Program-made: the position numbers and the translations under genes
Shown here: positions 2,152-41,053 of the stretch, one piece after another
How positions within the stretch are numbered: the stretch's first letter is position 1
Layout of the letters: every line of letters starts with the position of its first letter
NCBI RefSeq assembly: GCF_036507355.1
Contig: NZ_AP027879.1
Source: Escherichia coli
Lineage (GTDB): Bacteria > Pseudomonadota > Gammaproteobacteria > Enterobacterales > Enterobacteriaceae
Reading direction: 5' to 3' (one strand)
Length of the DNA stretch: 47,389 bases
The notes under the pieces: model-generated
Seen by the model: only the letters and a program-made list of their open reading frames with translations
The model's database searches: none
What the model was told of the DNA's origin: nothing

Positions 2152-3129
2152 ATGAGATATTTAACCGAATTGATCTGTGACCTCTACAGGTTGACAGATC
2201 ACCATAAACTGACCACAGCAACGTTTAAAAATCTTGCTGATATTAAGTTATTTAAACCTACAGCAGATGCAGACACCATATTGCAGCTTGAAAATATATT
2301 TAGCGAATACTCACTGAGATATATTGACAAGGATCTGGCTGAAATTCTGAGCAACTTAATAACTACAGATAAGAAACACTCTCTGGACTTCGATTTTAAC
2401 AAAATACAATCTCTGACTGACTCGAAAAGTTTCGGTTGTGGATGGAGCAAGGTAATAAATGGTAGTTGGTTCAAAGATCTTTATTCTTGGGGAGAGGGGA
2501 TGTATCCTGCCGAAAATCTGAAAGCTGAAAATATTTTAGACTGGAAAGATAATATATGGCACATTGAGCATGAAGGTTTCCCCCCACGCCCCCCTATTAA
2601 TGTTAAATATTATTCTTGGTTTGACCGATATGTAGCTTCAAACAGTGGTGGCTCACATCATGCAGCAATGGTTGTATATCAATCAGTCAGAGACGGGTTA
2701 GAGTATAAAAGAGAAGCTGTTATTAAACAACTGAGTATAGACCCAGGCACTGTTGAAATACTTGATAAGAATTACTATTCATTCATATTCCAGATCAAAA
2801 CCCTTAATAAAGAAACTAGAATTTATACATCTGAATACGAGTTTACAGATGCTTTAAAAGACTTTGGACAAAACAGACATACCATACTTAAACCTGTTAA
2901 TTACGTTTCCAACATAAAATTAGTATTTATTCCAAAAGATGCATTAAAAACAAATAGCGAGACATTCCGCAACTGGTTTCATTCTGCAATTAGCTGCGGA
3001 AAAATAATATCACTCCCTGATTATCTGAAAAATCCAGCACATTATCATACACTTCATTACTCACATGAAGTAGACTCAATAACACTTGGCGACCCAAGCA
3101 GAAAATTTAAACTGAAAGGAGATTCTTAG
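2152..3129 (+). CDS. Hypothetical protein, 325 aa, AT-rich, no recognised family
   Basis: Long uninterrupted ORF; no motif I can assign. Confidence 0.6.
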   Translation: MRYLTELICDLYRLTDHHKLTTATFKNLADIKLFKPTADADTILQLENIFSEYSLRYIDKDLAEILSNLITTDKKHSLDFDFNKIQSLTDSKSFGCGWSKVINGSWFKDLYSWGEGMYPAENLKAENILDWKDNIWHIEHEGFPPRPPINVKYYSWFDRYVASNSGGSHHAAMVVYQSVRDGLEYKREAVIKQLSIDPGTVEILDKNYYSFIFQIKTLNKETRIYTSEYEFTDALKDFGQNRHTILKPVNYVSNIKLVFIPKDALKTNSETFRNWFHSAISCGKIISLPDYLKNPAHYHTLHYSHEVDSITLGDPSRKFKLKGDS

Positions 3130-4104: not shown

Positions 4105-4941
4105 TTATCCTCTGAAACCGTATGGTATTCTGATATCTAAGCCCTCACTTTCTTTATCTATTTTATAAGAAAACCTTAGCTTTGATGCTCTTCTTGCGAC
4201 TCTCTCAACGATTTTAACTTCGAGATGATTAATCTCTGTATATTGATTTATTTTTTCAATATTTTTTTGCAGAAAAACCTTATTAAAATCCTTAAAATTC
4301 TGATAAAGGTAAACTTTTTCGCCATTATCTATTCTGAATAATTCAAGTTCATCCTTTAATACATCTACTTCAATGTCGAAAAATGTCTTTTTACCACTGC
4401 TGTATTGTTTCCTGATAAACTGATAAAGCATATTTGAATTTTGATCAGCGAGTCTTACAGACGATATCAAAACCTGAGTAGTGTAAGAATCCTTTAACAT
4501 CGTGATATATGGCTCAATGACATGTGAAAAAGCAATATCAATATATCCTTCACTTTCAACATAATCACAAAACGCAGTCAGGTTCATAAGCCTGACTGCA
4601 TCAGAAGGTAATTTACCTCTCTTCTTCGTATGTCCAGAGCTTTGATTGCCCTGAGGTGTGAGAAGTTGATTTCGAGGAATGCGAATAACACTGGCCTGAA
4701 GTTCTTCTGCCCCCTCTTTCAACTGCCGGTAAGCACCTGTTACATCAATATCAGCGATAAATGCATATTCCCGAGCCGTAATACGAAAGGTTGCCCCCTC
4801 AGATAACTCTTCACGTGAATCAATCTGCGCCATAGCCATAAACAAAATTCTTCTGGCAGACAAAGGCAACGATGAGAATGTGCTGTTAATTTCATTTCTG
4901 TGGCGAATTTTTGTTTTCTTTGTAACGCTCAGTAAGTTCAT
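4105..4941 (-). CDS. repB: Rep_3-family iteron-plasmid replication initiator
   Basis: 278 aa; family assigned from overall resemblance to iteron-plasmid initiators; iterons and DnaA boxes lie directly upstream. Confidence 0.85.
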   Translation of the reverse strand: MNLLSVTKKTKIRHRNEINSTFSSLPLSARRILFMAMAQIDSREELSEGATFRITAREYAFIADIDVTGAYRQLKEGAEELQASVIRIPRNQLLTPQGNQSSGHTKKRGKLPSDAVRLMNLTAFCDYVESEGYIDIAFSHVIEPYITMLKDSYTTQVLISSVRLADQNSNMLYQFIRKQYSSGKKTFFDIEVDVLKDELELFRIDNGEKVYLYQNFKDFNKVFLQKNIEKINQYTEINHLEVKIVERVARRASKLRFSYKIDKESEGLDIRIPYGFRG

Positions 4942-12688: not shown

Positions 12689-13508
12689 GGCACTGTTGCA
12701 AAGTTAGCGATGAGGCAGCCTTTTGTCTTATTCAAAGGCCTTACATTTCAAAAACTCTGCTTACCAGGCGCATTTCGCCCAGGGGATCACCATAATAAAA
12801 TGCTGAGGCCTGGCCTTTGCGTAGTGCACGCATCACCTCAATACCTTTGATGGTGGCGTAAGCCGTCTTCATGGATTTAAATCCCAGCGTGGCGTTGATT
12901 ATCCGTTTCAGTTTGCCATGATCGCATTCAATCACGTTGTTCCGGTACTTAATCTGTCGGTGTTCAACGTCAGACGGGCACCGGCCTTCGCGTTTGAGCA
13001 GAGCAAGCGCGCGACCATAGGCGGGCGCTTTATCCGTGTTGATGAATCGCGGGATCTGCCACTTCTTCACGTTGTTGAGGATTTTACCCAGAAACCGGTA
13101 TGCAGCTTTGCTGTTACGACGGGAGGAGAGATAAAAATCGACAGTGCGGCCCCGGCTGTCGACGGCCCGGTACAGATACGCCCAGCGGCCATTGACCTTC
13201 ACGTAGGTTTCATCCATGTGCCACGGGCAAAGATCGGAAGGGTTACGCCAGTACCAGCGCAGCCGTTTTTCCATTTCAGGCGCATAACGCTGAACCCAGC
13301 GGTAAATCGTGGAGTGATCGACATTCACTCCGCGTTCAGCCAGCATCTCCTGCAGCTCACGGTAACTGATGCCGTATTTGCAGTACCAGCGTACGGCCCA
13401 CAGAATGATGTCACGCTGAAAATGCCGGCCTTTGAATGGGTTCATGTGCAGCTCCATCAGCAAAAGGGGATGATAAGTTTATCACCACCGACTATTTGCA
13501 ACAGTGCC
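12689..13508 (-). mobile_element. IS26, complete, 820 bp (copy a)
   Basis: 14-bp terminal IRs GGCACTGTTGCAAA; Tnp26 ORF. Confidence 0.95.
12741..13445 (-). CDS. tnp26: IS26 transposase Tnp26, N at position 184
   Basis: [18 protein letters not shown]...; residue 184 is N ([10 protein letters not shown]). Confidence 0.95.
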   Translation of the reverse strand: MNPFKGRHFQRDIILWAVRWYCKYGISYRELQEMLAERGVNVDHSTIYRWVQRYAPEMEKRLRWYWRNPSDLCPWHMDETYVKVNGRWAYLYRAVDSRGRTVDFYLSSRRNSKAAYRFLGKILNNVKKWQIPRFINTDKAPAYGRALALLKREGRCPSDVEHRQIKYRNNVIECDHGKLKRIINATLGFKSMKTAYATIKGIEVMRALRKGQASAFYYGDPLGEMRLVSRVFEM

Positions 13509-13561
13509 CGCTCCAGATAGTCATCACCGATGAATCAGGCTCCAGTCGAACGGAGGAACTG

Positions 13562-14890
13562 ATGACAATCCAGAAATCAGGGGAGACCCGGAACGACATC
13601 GGATTATCGGTGTCAGAATCCAAGCTGTTGCTGAATACGGTCCAGCAGTCGGTGGTCCAGCTGCAGGCAGACGAATATACTCAACACCATATCCGGTGCC
13701 CTCACTGCCTTGCTGCGCGCAGAATCAAAGGCAAACAGAAAATACGGTACCGGACGCTGTTTGGCGTTATTCCGGTATCCGGGCTTCGGGTGTACCGGTG
13801 CCGTTGTGAAGAGAGTGATACAAAGACAGTCAGTTTGCTCAGCGACTGGGCCGGCGATTATTCTCACCCGGCACTGAAATATATTGAAACCCGCTGGGCC
13901 TCGATGATCTCCTATGAAATGACGACTCGTCTGCTGAAAGATATTCTGCCGGTGGGCCACAGCCTGAATGCCTCAACGGTGAGGAATCATTTATGCCAGG
14001 TGGCGCAGCGTCTTGACGCTGAGGCTGAAGCTCATTCAGGTTTTCTTTCCGGCTGCCCCCGCGACTGGGGGAACCTGCCCAGGCCAGGAAAACCGCTTGT
14101 GGTGGGTATAGATGGTGGTTATGTTCGCGATCGGGATGACAAAAAGCGTAATTTTGAAATTATTGCCGGGAAGTCTTTTTCCGTTGGTGCGCCTGCTGAC
14201 ACCCGCCGCTTCGGTTTTGTTCAGAAGGATGACTGTCATCCGGAACGCAGGCTCATGACCCACCTTTCAGCGCAGGGAATGCAGGCCAACCAGCAGATAT
14301 TTTTTCTGTCCGACGGCGCGGATAATCTCAGGGACCTCCAGTTCGGTATGTACCCTGAGTCAACGCATGTGCTGGACTGGTTTCATATCACCATGAGGCT
14401 GAAGGTGCTCATGCAATATGCCCGGGGACTGCTGGTATCAGATCCAGAGGCGGGGAGTAAAGTTCTGGCACTGCTGGAAAGCATTAAACGATATCTCTGG
14501 CATGGCAATGTTGTCGCTGCGCTGGAACATATTGATAATTGCGTTATGTATTGCGATGACCCTGAACTCAGCTATCCTAGCCTGAAATCCCTGCAAAAAC
14601 ATCTGGATGAAATGTATACCTACATCCGGAATAATAAGATGATGATCCCAAACTACGGCGAAATGCGTCGGTACGGAGAGCCGGTATCAACCGCGTTTGT
14701 GGAATCCACGATCAATGAAGTGATCGCCAGACGAATGGCCAAAAAGCAGCAGATGCAGTGGAGCAGAAAAGGGGCTCATTATTTGTTACAGACCCGGACC
14801 GCCGTTTTGAATAACGAACTGCAGGATAAATTTGTCTGCTGGTATCCGGGTTTTCAAAGTGACGGGAAGGGACCAGCGATGGCAGCATAG
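13562..14890 (+). CDS. Transposase with N-terminal zinc ribbon, about 443 aa; ISKra4-like (ISKpn19-like), family uncertain
   Basis: ATG after GGAGG just beyond the IS26 end; CPHC...CRC motif; qnrS1 neighbourhood. Confidence 0.5.
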   Translation: MTIQKSGETRNDIGLSVSESKLLLNTVQQSVVQLQADEYTQHHIRCPHCLAARRIKGKQKIRYRTLFGVIPVSGLRVYRCRCEESDTKTVSLLSDWAGDYSHPALKYIETRWASMISYEMTTRLLKDILPVGHSLNASTVRNHLCQVAQRLDAEAEAHSGFLSGCPRDWGNLPRPGKPLVVGIDGGYVRDRDDKKRNFEIIAGKSFSVGAPADTRRFGFVQKDDCHPERRLMTHLSAQGMQANQQIFFLSDGADNLRDLQFGMYPESTHVLDWFHITMRLKVLMQYARGLLVSDPEAGSKVLALLESIKRYLWHGNVVAALEHIDNCVMYCDDPELSYPSLKSLQKHLDEMYTYIRNNKMMIPNYGEMRRYGEPVSTAFVESTINEVIARRMAKKQQMQWSRKGAHYLLQTRTAVLNNELQDKFVCWYPGFQSDGKGPAMAA

Positions 14891-14913
14891 CTCACGCTGC
14901 CCCAATATTTTTT

Positions 14914-15351
14914 ATGCTCTCGGTCGTATGGAAGCTGGACCGCCTCGGTCGTGATCTTCGTCATCTCATTAATACAGTGCACGACCTGACCGCGAGGGGG
15001 ACCGGTCTGAAAGTGCTGACCGGTCACGGGGCGACTATCGACACAACAACGGCCGCTGGCAAGCTTGTCTTCGGTATCTTTGCCGCACTGGCGGAGTTTG
15101 AGCGCGAACTGATTGCTGAAAGAACGACTGCAGGTCTGGCATCAGCAAGAGCCCGTGGGCGGAACGGCGGCCGACCTTATAAAATGACGCCAGTCAAACT
15201 GCGACTGGCAATGGCATCAATGGGACAATCAGAAACAAAGGTCAGTACGCTATGCCAGGAACTTGGGATAACCCGGCAAACTTTGTACAGGCATATTTCC
15301 CCTGTTGGTCAACTGCGGGCGGACGGGATCAAGCTGCTCAACCGTGGATAA
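14914..15351 (+). pseudogene. tnpR: Serine resolvase (tnpR-like), 5'-truncated
   Basis: Frame begins mid-domain at LDRLGRD and lacks the catalytic Ser region; C-terminal HTH retained. Confidence 0.6.
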
Positions 15352-15408
15352 TTTGAACGGACGGAAAAATCTGGGGTTCCGGCGTAGTACCCCTATCACC
15401 TCCACATT

Positions 15409-15422
15409 TTTGCAACAGTGCC
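15409..15422. repeat. Solo 14-bp IS26/IS6-family terminal repeat (TTTGCAACAGTGCC)
   Basis: Exact match to the IS26 IR with no adjoining IS26 sequence. Confidence 0.4.
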
Positions 15423-15669
15423 TTATAAATGGCAGCCTTATGTTTACTTGCCAAGATGGGCTACCATATGATGTTTTATACTGAGCAATATTAATATTAT
15501 CTTTAATGGAAAAATTAAGCCCACTAAGTGACCCACTGCTATATGGCTCTATTGTGAAGACGCCTGAGGGTAAAAATTTATACATGGTTGTCCCTATGTC
15601 TATTATTGCAAGGTTGACAATATTATTCGTTTTATAAATTTGAGCGTTTAAAATCACACATCAAAGCAA

Positions 15670-16326
15670 TTAGTCAGGATAAACAACAATACCCAGTGCT
15701 TCGAGAATCAGTTCTTGCTGCCAGGCTGCAATTTTGATACCTGATGTATCGACTTTGCGGGGATCTAAACCGTCGAGTTCGGCGTGGCATAAATTGGCAC
15801 CCTGTAGGCTAAATTGCCCCCAGACATCTTCGGAAAAAACACCTCGACTTAAGTCTGACTCTTTCAGTGATGCACCCGCTAGGTTCGTTCCTATCCAGCG
15901 ATTTTCAAACAACTCACATTTTTCTAAACAAACCCTCTCCATATTGGCATAGGAAAGATTACATCCAGAAATAAATGCTGAGCAAAAGTACATACGATTA
16001 CTCACTTGATGGGCAAAGTTTGTTCGGGAAAAGTTGGCACCTTTTAAATCACACGCACGGAACTCTATACCGTAGCAATTGGCATTACTGAAGTTTGCCA
16101 TCGCAAGTTGGCATTGTTGGAAACTTGCATCACGAAGATCTGCGACATCAAAGTGGCAGCCTTCGATATCACCCTGTTCAATGAACTTGCAGTTGACGAA
16201 TGTCGTATCACGCAAGTTAGCACGTCGAAAGTCGCTGCGAATGAATGTGCAAGCGGTGAAGGTGAGATCACTTAAGTCTTTATGTGAAAAGTTGTGGTGC
16301 CGATATGTATGATTGTAGGTTTCCAT
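15670..16326 (-). CDS. qnrS1: Pentapeptide-repeat quinolone-resistance protein QnrS1
   Basis: 218 aa starting METYNHTYRHHNFSHKDL; pentapeptide repeats throughout. Confidence 0.95.
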   Translation of the reverse strand: METYNHTYRHHNFSHKDLSDLTFTACTFIRSDFRRANLRDTTFVNCKFIEQGDIEGCHFDVADLRDASFQQCQLAMANFSNANCYGIEFRACDLKGANFSRTNFAHQVSNRMYFCSAFISGCNLSYANMERVCLEKCELFENRWIGTNLAGASLKESDLSRGVFSEDVWGQFSLQGANLCHAELDGLDPRKVDTSGIKIAAWQQELILEALGIVVYPD

Positions 16327-16693
16327 GAGTACTCCTTGTTGAAAGGAGGGCTAGACTACCATTATACATATGCCAAGACATTAAAATAAAAGCCTGTTAC
16401 ATCAACACATTACAACCCCTCAATTTACCTGTTTTAAGTGGTCAAATTGGCGCGTAGAGCGCCTATCGCTCTTGCATTGGCACGCGGCCCTGTTGAAAAA
16501 AGTTATTCGCTTTAGATAGGGTTAGGAGAGCCGTGCTTCGCCGGTAAAAAATCGGACTATCCGACGCAGGGCGGACTCATCGGCGGAGAAGCAAACTTTG
16601 ACTATATCTCCCTACACTTGGAAGAGGGCTAGACTGGCCCCATAGATCACCAGACACTTCGACTCTCTTAAAATAAGAGGTAGTCTTGGAACT

Positions 16694-17089
16694 ATGTTTA
16701 ATACCAGTCAGAACGATAAGATGGTTGAAGTGTTATCAGGACCTGAGCGGCGTCGGCGTCGTACACCGCAGGAAAAAATTGCCATTATTCAGCAGACTAT
16801 GGAGCCCGGTATGACCGTGTCTCATGTCGCGCGCCTGCATGGCATCAATGCAAACCAGATATTCAAATGGCGCAAGCAATATTAAGACGGTTCACTGACG
16901 GCTGTTGCATCGGGCGAGGAAGTGGTGCCGGCCTCCGAACTCGCTGCCGCCAATAAGCAAATTCGCGAACTCCAGCGCCTTCTGGGCAAAAAGACGATGG
17001 AAGCCGAGATACTCAAAGAGGCCGTGGAGTTCGGCCGGGCAAAAAAATGGATTGCGCATGCGCCCTCGTTGCCTGGGAACGACGAATAA
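16694..17089 (+). pseudogene. IS2-like orfA containing an in-frame TAA at 16883-16885
   Basis: MFNTSQ...KWRKQY stop [12 protein letters not shown]...PGNDE; same frame continues for 67 codons after the stop. Confidence 0.5.
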
Positions 17090-17202
17090 GCGACGTTTGC
17101 AGAAGTCTTGGCGTGTCGCGTGCGCAGTTGAGCATTCGGGTTCACCGGCCATCTGACTGACAGGATCGCAGACGGCAGCCCCGTTCTGACGATACCACCG
17201 TA

Positions 17203-17745
17203 TTGTCCCGGATAAACATGGCGGTGGCTGACCTGCCGACGTATGGTTATCGCCGTGTGTGGGCGCTGCTGCGACGGGAGTCGGAGCGGGACGGCCTGCC
17301 TGTGGTTAATGCAAAGCGGGTGTATCGCATTATGAGAACGCATAATCTGCTTCTTGAACGTAAACCCGCTGATCCTTGCCGTAAGCGGGCCCATAAGGGG
17401 CGCGTAGCAGTAGCGGAAAGTAACCGGCGCTGGTGCTCAGATGGCTTTGAGTTCCGCTGTGATAATGGCGAAAAGCTGCGGGTGACCTTCGCGCAGGACT
17501 GCTGCGACAGGGAGATCATTGACTGGGCAGCGAGCACCGGAGGCTATGACAAAGAAACGGTGCAGGATGTCATGCTGGGTGCGGTGGAAAAACGCTTCGG
17601 AAGGCAGTTGCCAACAGTGCCGGCGTTCGCCCGGTTGCTGGGACTGGAGCCTTGTACGACAGCAGTGCGAAGCCCGGAAAGCAATGGCATAGCAGAAAGC
17701 TTCGTGATGACGATAAAACGGGACTACATCAGCATCAGGATTTTA
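17203..17745 (+). pseudogene. IS2-like orfB, 3'-truncated
   Basis: 183-aa catalytic-domain fragment ending where the Tn3 IR starts. Confidence 0.6.
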
Positions 17746-17783
17746 GGGGTCTGACGCTCAGTGGAACGAAAACTCACGTTAAG
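17746..17783. repeat. Tn3/Tn2 38-bp terminal inverted repeat
   Basis: GGGGTCTGACGCTCAGTGGAACGAAAACTCACGTTAAG. Confidence 0.85.
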
Positions 17784-19081
17784 CAACGTTTTCTGCCTCT
17801 GACGCCTCTTTTAATGGTCTCAGATGTCCTTTGGTCACCAGTTCTGCCAGCGTGAAGGAATAATGGCCGAGCATATTGATATGTCCGTGGCAAAGCGGGG
17901 AGAGGCGTGCGATATCTTCATCATTCAGTGTTTCACCCTGCGCCCGGAGATGATCCAGGGCTGCCTGCATATAAATAGTGTTCCATAACACGACGGCGTT
18001 AGTGACCAGCCCCAGTGTGCCCAGTTGATCTTCCTGACCGTCGGTATATCGTTTTCTTATCTCACCTTTTTGACCGTGACAGATGGCTCTGGCAACGGCA
18101 TGGCGACTTTCTCCCCGATTAAGCTGGGTCAGAATGCGCCGGCGGTAATCTTCATCATCAATATAATTAAGCAGATACAGCGTTTTGTTGATGCGCCCCA
18201 CTTCAATGATTGCCTGAGTCAGTCCGGAAGGACGTTCACTTTTCAGCAATGAACGGACCAGCACTGAAACCTGTACTTTGCCCAGCTTCAGGGAGCCAGC
18301 GGTCCGGATCATTTCGTCCCACTGAAGGACTATTTTTCGGGGATCTGATTGCCCTCTGGCAATATCATTCAGCACGCCATAGTCGGCATCATGGTCCATT
18401 CGCCAGAAAACCGAAGCACCGGCATCAGCCAGGCGTGGAGAAAACTGGTATCCCAGCAGCCAGAAAAGGCCAAAGACAAGTTCGCTGGCACCTGCTGTAT
18501 CGGTCATAATTTCGGTTGGATTCAGCCCGGTCTCCTGTTCCAGAAGACCTTCCAGCACAAAGATAGAGTCCCTCAGCGTCCCCGGTATAACGATGCCATG
18601 AAAGCCGGAATACTGATCGGACACAAAGTTGTACCAGGTGATCCCTCTGTTATTACCAAAGTATTTGCGGTTCGGTCCGGCATTGATTGTTCTGACTGGC
18701 GTAACAAAGCGCATTCCATCTGCAGATGCCACTTCTCCTCCACCCCATATCTGTGCCAGTGGCAGCGTTGCCTGAAAATCAACCAGTCTGGCATTAGCGC
18801 TGGTGATAGTTTCAGCCCGCAGATAGTTCGCTTTTGTCCAGTTCAGCCGGTGTCGGGTCAGTGCAGGAACATTTGATCTGATCAGTGGTTCCAGACCGAT
18901 ATTGCAGGCTTCAGCCATCAGCACGGCGCTGATGCTGACGGGCAGATCATCAACTCTGGCACTGGCTTCACTAGCATGGAAAAACTCATCAGCAAATCCG
19001 GTATGGGCGTTAATTTCGAGCAGCAACTCCGTTAAATCCACCGGAGGGAGTAGATCACTGATCATTTTGCTCAGTCGTTTC
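17779..19081 (-). pseudogene. tnpA: Tn3-family transposase TnpA (Tn2/Tn3), 5'-truncated by IS26
   Basis: 435-aa C-terminal portion ending inside the Tn3 IR; N-terminus replaced by IS26. Confidence 0.85.
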
Positions 19082-19901
19082 GGCACTGTTGCAAATAGTC
19101 GGTGGTGATAAACTTATCATCCCCTTTTGCTGATGGAGCTGCACATGAACCCATTCAAAGGCCGGCATTTTCAGCGTGACATCATTCTGTGGGCCGTACG
19201 CTGGTACTGCAAATACGGCATCAGTTACCGTGAGCTGCAGGAGATGCTGGCTGAACGCGGAGTGAATGTCGATCACTCCACGATTTACCGCTGGGTTCAG
19301 CGTTATGCGCCTGAAATGGAAAAACGGCTGCGCTGGTACTGGCGTAACCCTTCCGATCTTTGCCCGTGGCACATGGATGAAACCTACGTGAAGGTCAATG
19401 GCCGCTGGGCGTATCTGTACCGGGCCGTCGACAGCCGGGGCCGCACTGTCGATTTTTATCTCTCCTCCCGTCGTAACAGCAAAGCTGCATACCGGTTTCT
19501 GGGTAAAATCCTCAACAACGTGAAGAAGTGGCAGATCCCGCGATTCATCAACACGGATAAAGCGCCCGCCTATGGTCGCGCGCTTGCTCTGCTCAAACGC
19601 GAAGGCCGGTGCCCGTCTGACGTTGAACACCGACAGATTAAGTACCGGAACAACGTGATTGAATGCGATCATGGCAAACTGAAACGGATAATCAACGCCA
19701 CGCTGGGATTTAAATCCATGAAGACGGCTTACGCCACCATCAAAGGTATTGAGGTGATGCGTGCACTACGCAAAGGCCAGGCCTCAGCATTTTATTATGG
19801 TGATCCCCTGGGCGAAATGCGCCTGGTAAGCAGAGTTTTTGAAATGTAAGGCCTTTGAATAAGACAAAAGGCTGCCTCATCGCTAACTTTGCAACAGTGC
19901 C
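19082..19901 (+). mobile_element. IS26, complete (copy b)
   Basis: 14-bp IRs, 820 bp. Confidence 0.95.
19145..19849 (+). CDS. tnp26: IS26 transposase Tnp26, N at position 184
   Basis: Identical protein to copy a. Confidence 0.95.
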   Translation: MNPFKGRHFQRDIILWAVRWYCKYGISYRELQEMLAERGVNVDHSTIYRWVQRYAPEMEKRLRWYWRNPSDLCPWHMDETYVKVNGRWAYLYRAVDSRGRTVDFYLSSRRNSKAAYRFLGKILNNVKKWQIPRFINTDKAPAYGRALALLKREGRCPSDVEHRQIKYRNNVIECDHGKLKRIINATLGFKSMKTAYATIKGIEVMRALRKGQASAFYYGDPLGEMRLVSRVFEM

Positions 19902-24193: not shown

Positions 24194-24447
24194 GGCACTG
24201 TTGCAAATAGTCGGTGGTGATAAACTTATCATCCCCTTTTGCTGATGGAGCTGCACATGAACCCATTCAAAGGCCGGCATTTTCAGCGTGACATCATTCT
24301 GTGGGCCGTACGCTGGTACTGCAAATACGGCATCAGTTACCGTGAGCTGCAGGAGATGCTGGCTGAACGCGGAGTGAATGTCGATCACTCCACGATTTAC
24401 CGCTGGGTTCAGCGTTATGCGCCTGAAATGGAAAAACGGCTGCGCTG
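24194..24447 (+). mobile_element. IS26 fragment (first about 254 bp including IRL and tnp 5' end)
   Basis: Identical to the IS26 left end; interrupted by inverted complete IS26 copy c. Confidence 0.8.
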
Positions 24448-24448
24448 G

Positions 24449-25268
24449 GGCACTGTTGCAAAGTTAGCGATGAGGCAGCCTTTTGTCTTATTCAAAGGCC
24501 TTACATTTCAAAAACTCTGCTTACCAGGCGCATTTCGCCCAGGGGATCACCATAATAAAATGCTGAGGCCTGGCCTTTGCGTAGTGCACGCATCACCTCA
24601 ATACCTTTGATGGTGGCGTAAGCCGTCTTCATGGATTTAAATCCCAGCGTGGCGTTGATTATCCGTTTCAGTTTGCCATGATCGCATTCAATCACGTTGT
24701 TCCGGTACTTAATCTGTCGGTGTTCAACGTCAGACGGGCACCGGCCTTCGCGTTTGAGCAGAGCAAGCGCGCGACCATAGGCGGGCGCTTTATCCGTGTT
24801 GATGAATCGTGGGATCTGCCACTTCTTCACGTTGTTGAGGATTTTACCCAGAAACCGGTATGCAGCTTTGCTGTTACGACGGGAGGAGAGATAAAAATCG
24901 ACAGTGCGGCCCCGGCTGTCGACGGCCCGGTACAGATACGCCCAGCGGCCATTGACCTTCACGTAGGTTTCATCCATGTGCCACGGGCAAAGATCGGAAG
25001 GGTTACGCCAGTACCAGCGCAGCCGTTTTTCCATTTCAGGCGCATAACGCTGAACCCAGCGGTAAATCGTGGAGTGATCGACATTCACTCCGCGTTCAGC
25101 CAGCATCTCCTGCAGCTCACGGTAACTGATGCCGTATTTGCAGTACCAGCGTACGGCCCACAGAATGATGTCACGCTGAAAATGCCGGCCTTTGAATGGG
25201 TTCATGTGCAGCTCCATCAGCAAAAGGGGATGATAAGTTTATCACCACCGACTATTTGCAACAGTGCC
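24449..25268 (-). mobile_element. IS26, complete (copy c)
   Basis: 14-bp IRs, 820 bp. Confidence 0.95.
24501..25205 (-). CDS. tnp26: IS26 transposase Tnp26, N at position 184
   Basis: Same protein as copies a and b. Confidence 0.95.
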
Positions 25269-34643: not shown

Positions 34644-34681
34644 CTTAACGTGAGTTTTCGTTCCACTGAGCGTCAGACCCC
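34644..34681. repeat. Tn3/Tn2 right 38-bp inverted repeat
   Basis: CTTAACGTGAGTTTTCGTTCCACTGAGCGTCAGACCCC. Confidence 0.85.
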
Positions 34682-37595: not shown

Positions 37596-38415
37596 GGCAC
37601 TGTTGCAAAGTTAGCGATGAGGCAGCCTTTTGTCTTATTCAAAGGCCTTACATTTCAAAAACTCTGCTTACCAGGCGCATTTCGCCCAGGGGATCACCAT
37701 AATAAAATGCTGAGGCCTGGCCTTTGCGTAGTGCACGCATCACCTCAATACCTTTGATGGTGGCGTAAGCCGTCTTCATGGATTTAAATCCCAGCGTGGC
37801 GCCGATTATCCGTTTCAGTTTGCCATGATCGCATTCAATCACGTTGTTCCGGTACTTAATCTGTCGGTGTTCAACGTCAGACGGGCACCGGCCTTCGCGT
37901 TTGAGCAGAGCAAGCGCGCGACCATAGGCGGGCGCTTTATCCGTGTTGATGAATCGCGGGATCTGCCACTTCTTCACGTTGTTGAGGATTTTACCCAGAA
38001 ACCGGTATGCAGCTTTGCTGTTACGACGGGAGGAGAGATAAAAATCGACAGTGCGGCCCCGGCTGTCGACGGCCCGGTACAGATACGCCCAGCGGCCATT
38101 GACCTTCACGTAGGTTTCATCCATGTGCCACGGGCAAAGATCGGAAGGGTTACGCCAGTACCAGCGCAGCCGTTTTTCCATTTCAGGCGCATAACGCTGA
38201 ACCCAGCGGTAAATCGTGGAGTGATCGACATTCACTCCGCGTTCAGCCAGCATCTCCTGCAGCTCACGGTAACTGATGCCGTATTTGCAGTACCAGCGTA
38301 CGGCCCACAGAATGATGTCACGCTGAAAATGCCGGCCTTTGAATGGGTTCATGTGCAGCTCCATCAGCAAAAGGGGATGATAAGTTTATCACCACCGACT
38401 ATTTGCAACAGTGCC
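37596..38415 (-). mobile_element. IS26, complete (copy d)
   Basis: 14-bp IRs, 820 bp. Confidence 0.95.
37648..38352 (-). CDS. tnp26: IS26 transposase Tnp26, G at position 184
   Basis: [10 protein letters not shown]. Confidence 0.95.
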   Translation of the reverse strand: MNPFKGRHFQRDIILWAVRWYCKYGISYRELQEMLAERGVNVDHSTIYRWVQRYAPEMEKRLRWYWRNPSDLCPWHMDETYVKVNGRWAYLYRAVDSRGRTVDFYLSSRRNSKAAYRFLGKILNNVKKWQIPRFINTDKAPAYGRALALLKREGRCPSDVEHRQIKYRNNVIECDHGKLKRIIGATLGFKSMKTAYATIKGIEVMRALRKGQASAFYYGDPLGEMRLVSRVFEM

Positions 38416-40233: not shown

Positions 40234-41053
40234 GGCACTGTTGCAAAGTTAGCGATGAGGCAGCCTTTTGTCTTATTCAAAGGCCTTACATTTCAAAAAC
40301 TCTGCTTACCAGGCGCATTTCGCCCAGGGGATCACCATAATAAAATGCTGAGGCCTGGCCTTTGCGTAGTGCACGCATCACCTCAATACCTTTGATGGTG
40401 GCGTAAGCCGTCTTCATGGATTTAAATCCCAGCGTGGCGCCGATTATCCGTTTCAGTTTGCCATGATCGCATTCAATCACGTTGTTCCGGTACTTAATCT
40501 GTCGGTGTTCAACGTCAGACGGGCACCGGCCTTCGCGTTTGAGCAGAGCAAGCGCGCGACCATAGGCGGGCGCTTTATCCGTGTTGATGAATCGCGGGAT
40601 CTGCCACTTCTTCACGTTGTTGAGGATTTTACCCAGAAACCGGTATGCAGCTTTGCTGTTACGACGGGAGGAGAGATAAAAATCGACAGTGCGGCCCCGG
40701 CTGTCGACGGCCCGGTACAGATACGCCCAGCGGCCATTGACCTTCACGTAGGTTTCATCCATGTGCCACGGGCAAAGATCGGAAGGGTTACGCCAGTACC
40801 AGCGCAGCCGTTTTTCCATTTCAGGCGCATAACGCTGAACCCAGCGGTAAATCGTGGAGTGATCGACATTCACTCCGCGTTCAGCCAGCATCTCCTGCAG
40901 CTCACGGTAACTGATGCCGTATTTGCAGTACCAGCGTACGGCCCACAGAATGATGTCACGCTGAAAATGCCGGCCTTTGAATGGGTTCATGTGCAGCTCC
41001 ATCAGCAAAAGGGGATGATAAGTTTATCACCACCGACTATTTGCAACAGTGCC
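40234..41053 (-). mobile_element. IS26, complete (copy e)
   Basis: 14-bp IRs, 820 bp. Confidence 0.95.
40286..40990 (-). CDS. tnp26: IS26 transposase Tnp26, G at position 184
   Basis: Same protein as copy d. Confidence 0.95.

Follow-up and report, generated by a model that had tools for sequence, protein, structure and literature searches.

Among the 47,389 nucleotides of Escherichia coli DNA analysed here (contig NZ_AP027879.1; hereafter the window), an IS2-like element lies beside the qnrS1 gene, and its orfA is interrupted by an in-frame stop codon. Is this a functional insertion sequence with a naturally short OrfA or the remains of a dead one, and what removed its distal end? We are highly confident that window positions 16630-17737 are the fossil remains of an insertion sequence of the IS2 group (IS3 family), namely the ΔISEcl2 that belongs to the conserved qnrS1 resistance module. 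ISEcl2 is reportedly described originally by Poirel et al. 2007 (AAC 51:631). An earlier note on this DNA had proposed an inactivated IS2-like element beside qnrS1, and the left inverted repeat (IRL), the protein domains, a 303-bp spacing to qnrS1 and the lesions described below all agree with that proposal. The span it gave for the element, 16694-17745, has to be replaced at both ends, as the IRL starts at 16630 and homology to the IS ends at 17737. The remnant as such is already known: RefSeq annotates it as a pseudogene, and published work calls it ΔISEcl2 or a defective IS2-like element. What we add is the complete list of its lesions, an 8-bp IncX1 scar that corrects the supposed cut by a Tn3-type inverted repeat, the finding that the full-length, named ISEcl2 is dead in every sampled copy, and an intact sister IS, 95% identical, in Salmonella.

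The remnant beside qnrS1 and its lesions

The stretch 16630-17737 makes up the left part, 1,108 bp long, of an element of the IS2 group in the IS3 family. Its IRL (16630-16670, plus strand; TAGACTGGCCCCATAGATCACCAGACACTTCGACTCTCTTA) begins with the same 12 bp as the IRL of IS2, TAGACTGGCCCC, and pairs imperfectly, over about 41 bp, with the right inverted repeat (IRR) of a full-length copy in NZ_CP073375.1 (L003). From the IRL to the qnrS1 start codon (16326) there are 303 bp (16630 minus 16326 minus 1), which matches exactly the published spacing between ISEcl2 and this start codon (PMC9044524), and it is from this spacing, together with papers that postdate the original description, that we identify the element as ISEcl2. 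The qnrS1 gene (15670-16326, minus strand) is divergent from the IS, gives pentapeptide-repeat Pfam hits and is annotated as QnrS1 WP_001516695.1 in identical records. The gene order in the window is an ISKpn19 transposase gene (ending at 14890), a truncated resolvase gene (14914-15351), qnrS1 and the IS remnant; ΔISEcl2-qnrS1-ΔtnpR-ISKpn19 has been described as the core qnrS1 platform (PMC5027574, PMC5034289). The IS2-like element adjacent to qnrS1 has been termed 'defective', and ISAs17 and ISEcl1 were given as the best ISfinder matches of its orfs (PMC8953408), suggesting that ISEcl2 may be absent from ISfinder.

Used as a query, positions 16620-17760 (1,141 bp) have 100% matches in hundreds of plasmid records, which come from Klebsiella, Escherichia, Salmonella, Shigella and Enterobacter; 955 records cover at least 80% of the query. 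The RefSeq/PGAP annotation already describes a pseudogene: 'IS3 family transposase; frameshifted; internal stop; incomplete; missing C-terminus'.

The orfA pseudogene (16721-17089, plus strand; native stop at 17087-17089) belongs to HTH_Tnp_1 (Pfam PF01527, E = 1e-19), a match made on the conceptual read-through translation and covering positions 18-97 of the 131-aa conceptual OrfA. An in-frame ATG lies upstream at 16694; judging from homologues and from PGAP, the true start is likely ATG 16721. The open reading frame from ATG 16694 ends with ...FKWRKQY at a TAA codon (16883-16885, plus strand), and the frame then runs on to 17087-17089. This premature stop, which replaces an ancestral GAA (Glu), cuts OrfA to 54 aa (63 aa if counted from 16694). 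It is seen both in the sequence and in the list of open reading frames, as the earlier note had reported when it placed an in-frame stop directly after WRKQY. The comparison with InsC of IS2 in that note was accurate as well: in the E. coli IS2 copy that we fetched, the TAA aligns with CAG (Q), within WRKQYQEGSLTAV / ...KQYQEGSLTAV... at the protein level.

The two-ORF layout of the IS3 family is recognizable in the remnant, with orfA, an overlapping orfB in the -1 frame and an A-rich slippery heptamer. The latter, an A7 run (17041-17047, plus strand; GCA AAA AAA TGG), aligns with the A6G site of IS2, GGGCAAAAAAGTGG, and represents the programmed -1 frameshift site, the OrfAB fusions of relatives changing frame at this run (...GRAKK, then LDCAC...). 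The orfB pseudogene (17047-17737, plus strand), in the -1 frame relative to orfA, retains HTH_21 (PF13276) and a broken rve/DDE core (PF00665), and its 3' end is gone. Within it, a premature TGA (17158-17160, plus strand) stands in place of an ancestral TGG (Trp), the codon that IS2 and each of the four close relatives have. Further on, DNA alignments with IS2 and with the Salmonella relative, as well as the protein alignment, reveal an in-frame 51-bp deletion (junction at 17618-17624, plus strand), by which 17 codons, LEWLTDNGSAYRAHETR, have been lost and a Glu has been changed to Val at the junction. The deleted segment holds the second catalytic Asp of the DDE triad, an assignment made from the architecture of the rve/retroviral-integrase fold. 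Consistent with such a deletion, the rve match covers profile positions 3-66 of 102 in the window element versus 3-102 in an intact relative. The D-to-E spacing in the relatives is 36 residues, which fits a D,D(35)E core.

A complete DDE (rve) core is therefore absent from the orfB of the window, and membership in the IS3 family is one of descent, as a pseudogene, and not of function. The repaired conceptual OrfAB passed the IS3 family transposase model NF033516 (202.6 bits, cut-off 160), whereas it stayed below the cut-offs of the IS2-specific NCBIfam models NF006918 and NF006928, as did the intact relative; the scores against these IS2-specific cut-offs were 337 versus 597 and 185 versus 229. 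Two nonsense codons and a deleted catalytic Asp mean that no OrfAB transposase can be made. The suggestion in the earlier note that the element is doubly inactivated holds for the orfA stop and for the truncation of orfB, but the lesions are four: the TAA, the TGA, the 51-bp deletion and the loss of 174 bp together with the IRR. The 54-aa N-terminal fragment of OrfA, with its helix-turn-helix, may be expressed. We considered recoding or read-through of the TAA and rejected it, since orfB holds independent lethal lesions.

Full-length copies, intact relatives and the ancestral codon

Records that match only positions 1-1118 of the query hold a complete element next to blaLAP-2. In one of them, NZ_CP073375.1, where this blaLAP-2 context of ISEcl2 is present, the IS extends 174 bp further to an IS2-like right end, ...GTCTGGATATATAGGGTCAAATCCA, giving a total of 1,282 bp with imperfect inverted repeats of about 41 bp. 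Terminal inverted repeats are thus found at both ends of this copy, whereas the window copy has the IRL only. Window positions 16630-17737 are 100% identical to the NZ_CP073375.1 copy, so the full-length element carries the same TAA, TGA and deletion. It lies without a 5-bp target duplication (AGGGC on the left, at 3006-3010; CTGTA on the right, at 4293-4297), which suggests that its flanks were joined by recombination or by an adjacent rearrangement, and not by simple insertion. In the window copy, which has a single end, a 5-bp target duplication is impossible.

We then looked for copies without the lesions. A 321-bp query with both stops repaired reached at best 99.4% identity (two mismatches) among the records that include the site, approximately 1,566 from PLSDB and 647 from E. 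coli, and none of these plasmid or complete E. coli records had a sense codon at either stop. No PLSDB or complete E. coli record had the 51 bp restored, the matched span always being 1,282 bp; likewise, the best PLSDB matches of a repaired 1,333-bp query were all to the defective element of 1,282 bp, with the alignment split in two. Both nonsense codons are fixed throughout the sampled copies. In genome and metagenome contigs, a 31-mer spanning the stop gave 0 matches with a base other than T; the positive control, with T, also gave 0, meaning that those collections lack the element.

Elements that are intact were found at the protein level. A protein search with the repaired OrfB returned intact OrfAB of 401 aa, the best being from Salmonella at 90% identity (gap counted), and others at 82-85% from Erwinia, Citrobacter, Pantoea, Entomohabitans and Morganella. 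The Salmonella protein is encoded by a 1,333-bp IS, which is present at several chromosomal sites with 5-bp duplications (aaatg, gtttg, ccaac), one copy splitting proQ; this IS is evidently active. It is apparently unnamed, occurs in assemblies GCA_0014091xx-0014110xx and is annotated by PGAP as 'IS3 family transposase'. The Erwinia, Citrobacter and Entomohabitans elements, too, have GAA, TGG and the 51 bp. The codon at the position of the TAA is GAA (E) in the four closest intact relatives, indicating that the TAA is derived (G>T) and that OrfA is not naturally short.

Two remnants on Klebsiella plasmids were tried as further intact copies and rejected: L005, with patches of 83-95% identity, and L006, a 103-bp IRL piece. 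The former, on the K. pneumoniae plasmid NZ_CP057723.1 (L005 1630-2570), is a decayed IS2-group remnant of about 940 bp, the 3' part of which is 83% identical to ISEcl2 with a patch of 95% and keeps the segment that ISEcl2 lost, while the 5' part is 67% identical. This remnant may be of hybrid origin, or it may be a relative that decayed on its own.

The same TAA is present in every copy, including those that are complete from end to end over 1,282 bp, and the 54-aa product would keep the helix-turn-helix region, so one could read the TAA as the genuine end of a small regulatory OrfA and the element as a functional IS2-group variant. We consider this highly improbable. Every intact relative in the range of 87-95% nucleotide identity has GAA here and an uninterrupted frame, and the similarity does not stop at the TAA: the conceptual OrfA is 96% identical to the intact Salmonella OrfAB across it, and the 68 codons that follow are 96% identical in frame to the relatives, the frameshift site included. 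Moreover, the TGA in orfB and the lost second DDE aspartate would leave the element without a transposase regardless of OrfA, and in some plasmids the remnant ends at the stop or short of it (query ends 260, 159, 66 and 45), some of these cuts taking away the short orfA entirely, so that the short ORF is dispensable. The earlier note had named a reference element with the same stop as the observation that would speak for a natural short OrfA. The 1,282-bp ISEcl2 does carry the TAA, but the intact relatives have GAA, and a reference sharing the TAA does not mean a short OrfA because the named element is itself a pseudo-IS. The probability that an error of sequencing or assembly produced the stop in the window is negligible, as projects and platforms independent of one another yielded the same base, in approximately 1,566 PLSDB records and in 647 complete E. 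coli replicons; more than 2,000 concordant records exclude such an error. The TAA is thus best read as one of several inactivating mutations in a dead element.

To place these mutations in time, we polarised the differences between ISEcl2 and the Salmonella element with three outgroups (Erwinia, Citrobacter and Entomohabitans). The ISEcl2 branch received 32 changes, the coding ones comprising 19 synonymous and 6 non-synonymous changes, including the two nonsense codons. In these small numbers, the 19:6 ratio suggests that most of the divergence on the ISEcl2 branch took place under purifying selection and that the lesions may have come late.

The distal end of the remnant varies between plasmids (query ends 1118, 1037, 825, 734, 721, 521, 260, 159, 66 and 45), and the IRL side, proximal to qnrS1, is always retained in these distally cut copies. 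Variable distal cuts with a retained IRL side point to a passenger scar, not to a selected function.

The distal junction and the IncX1 scar

Homology to the IS stops at 17737, and the last 174 bp, including the IRR, are missing from the window. The next 8 bp, GGATTTTA (17738-17745), are not part of the IS, being bases of the IncX1 backbone that adjoin the target site of Tn2. Full-length ISEcl2 reads TGCCGAAA where the window has GGATTTTA, and the naive IncX1 backbone (L017) reads ...GGGGGGATTTTATGGG... / ...GGGGGGATTTTATGGGTG... uninterrupted. Directly after this filler stands an exact 38-bp terminal inverted repeat of the Tn3/Tn2 type (17746-17783, plus strand; GGGGTCTGACGCTCAGTGGAACGAAAACTCACGTTAAG), followed by the 3' part of a Tn3-type tnpA (17779-19086, minus strand; Pfam DDE_Tnp_Tn3, E = 1e-148), which is cut by IS26 at 19082. 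In the IncX1 plasmid NZ_CP020341.1 (L013), a complete Tn2 carrying blaTEM-1 has TTTTA on both sides, its target-site duplication, and IncX1 backbone beyond. Taken together, the TTTTA-flanked Tn2 and the naive backbone indicate that Tn2 went into the IncX1 backbone and not into the IS. The earlier note had orfB truncated by the Tn3-type inverted repeat at 17746. Its 3' truncation and the exact repeat are both there, but the IS joins IncX1 bases at 17737/17738, and it is this separate junction that truncated the IS.

No further IncX1 backbone is found elsewhere in the window, and the lone 8-bp stretch thus points to a scar that was imported together with the module. A search for an empty ISEcl2-IncX1 site, one lacking Tn2, gave no example that spans the junction, so that truncation followed by Tn2 and Tn2 followed by truncation are both possible.

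The sequence GGATTTTA occurs twice in NZ_CP020341.1 (3443-3450 and 9119-9126), as an 8-bp direct repeat around a 5.7-kb qnrS1 module, one copy lying at the backbone edge left of the module and the other between ΔISEcl2 and the IRL of Tn2. A search of the left edge of the module in this plasmid revealed no Tn3-family inverted repeat, nor is there an IS26. In the window, a second exact 38-bp inverted repeat of the Tn3 type is found at 34644-34681 (minus strand), beside the end of a blaTEM-type gene. On the outside it is flanked by ...GTAATCATA, not TTTTA, and this differing flank indicates that it comes from another Tn2/Tn3 insertion or fragment than the repeat at 17746.

History, mobility and comparison with known elements

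The qnrS1 segment (13509-19081) lies between two inverted copies of IS26, at 12689-13508 (tnpA on the minus strand) and 19082-19901 (tnpA on the plus strand), and this IS26-bounded arrangement recurs at 99.9% identity in plasmids of E. coli and Salmonella. Lacking a transposase and having only one end, the window remnant is neither autonomous nor mobilisable. Judging from the flanking copies alone, IS26 and the host plasmids are likely the agent of present-day movement. A promoter scan of 16250-16800 gave nothing above the shuffled expectation, and so no support for the IS end driving qnrS1.

From the demonstrated identity of the element, its four lesions, the fixation seen in the sampled copies and the ancestral states, we infer the order and timing of events and the mobilisation by IS26 as follows. 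The ancestor would have been a functional 1,333-bp IS, like the one that is still active in the chromosomes of Salmonella, and would have gained three lesions (GAA>TAA, TGG>TGA and the 51-bp deletion) shortly before or around its linkage to qnrS1. In the lineage of the window, the last 174 bp with the IRR would have been lost at a junction with IncX1 DNA that already carried, or later received, Tn2. The remnant, with no transposase and one end, would since have been inert and carried passively, the IS26 pair bracketing the qnrS1 segment being its likely vehicle.

A different route would be that the two-ended defective IS was moved in trans by the transposase of a close relative, such as the Salmonella IS, and in this way linked qnrS1 and blaLAP. 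The 1,282-bp form does keep both inverted repeats; it agrees with the Salmonella relative at every one of its last 33 bp, and the two have 3 differences in the first 41 positions of the IRL. A role of ISEcl2 in the acquisition of qnrS1 has, besides, been speculated on (PMC5027574). The route is inapplicable to the window, however, where the IRR is absent, the full-length copy bears no 5-bp target duplication, and the databases hold only a single qnrS1/blaLAP position, with no second insertion site; the chance that it was taken is very slim. A long shot, too, is the wider proposal that all ISEcl2 copies come from one already-dead element with an active sister in Salmonella, so that a functional ISEcl2 may never have been sampled, and that this element is mobilised in trans or that its 54-aa helix-turn-helix stub acts as a trans-repressor. 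If true, the dead ISEcl2 would have a residual role in assembling or stabilising the qnrS1/blaLAP module. We prefer the reading of the remnant as an inert passenger.

The surroundings of the segment are rich in IS26. There are five complete copies in the 47 kb (12689-13508, 19082-19901, 24449-25268, 37596-38415 and 40234-41053) and an orphan inverted repeat at 24194-24207, and the window as a whole is a multiresistance region built by IS26; as judged from matching plasmids, floR and other genes lie downstream. The left IS26 end (13508) covers the opening bases of the ISKpn19 transposase gene, for which the equivalent of the PGAP start is 13499; by this overlap, at 13499-13508, the left end of ISKpn19 is lost, and its start codon is probably lost as well. 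The 484-aa open reading frame listed from 13436 is a read-in from IS26. A solitary exact 14-bp terminal repeat of IS26, GGCACTGTTGCAAA, lies at 15409-15422 (minus strand), 247 bp beyond the qnrS1 stop codon, and a weaker similarity to the IS26 right end runs inward from it (..GGTGATA..). It is found in every qnrS1 context that we fetched (L001, L003, L004 and L013), and looks like the fossil of an old IS6-family end within the conserved module.

For annotators and epidemiologists, the current mobility of qnrS1 is not to be credited to ISEcl2, but probably to IS26 and the host plasmids. The remnant usefully marks the qnrS1 modules on plasmids across Enterobacterales as having a common ancestry, and the variable distal break-points together with the 8-bp IncX1 scar can be used for tracing transfer of the module between plasmid backbones. 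Beyond correct annotation, the importance of the remnant is small.

Of known elements, the 1,333-bp IS of Salmonella enterica (L007 1437-2769; OrfAB of 401 aa) is 95.2% identical in nucleotide sequence over 1,282 aligned bp and has the inverted-repeat ends, the orfA/orfB layout and the frameshift site as in ISEcl2. It differs in having GAA, TGG and the 51 bp, whereas the window element has three internal lesions and no right end. IS2 of E. coli (InsC/InsD) shares the A-rich -1 frameshift site, the helix-turn-helix and leucine-zipper region of OrfA and the DDE core of OrfB, with an OrfAB amino-acid identity of 73% to the window element and a DNA identity of about 70%, and has Q-E where the ISEcl2 lineage has E-D. 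A DNA identity of about 70%, together with IS2 models that stay below their cut-offs, makes the element a relative within the IS2 group and not IS2 itself. With the ISEcl2 qnrS1 platform, known from Tn6292-related qnrS1 regions (PMC5027574, PMC5034289), finally, the window shares position, orientation and neighbours (ISKpn19, the truncated resolvase gene, qnrS1, ΔISEcl2 and a Tn3-type or IS26 boundary). The window copy is truncated on the Tn2 side at 17737, whereas the copies linked to blaLAP-2 have the full 1,282 bp; in all else of substance, the window and the platform agree.
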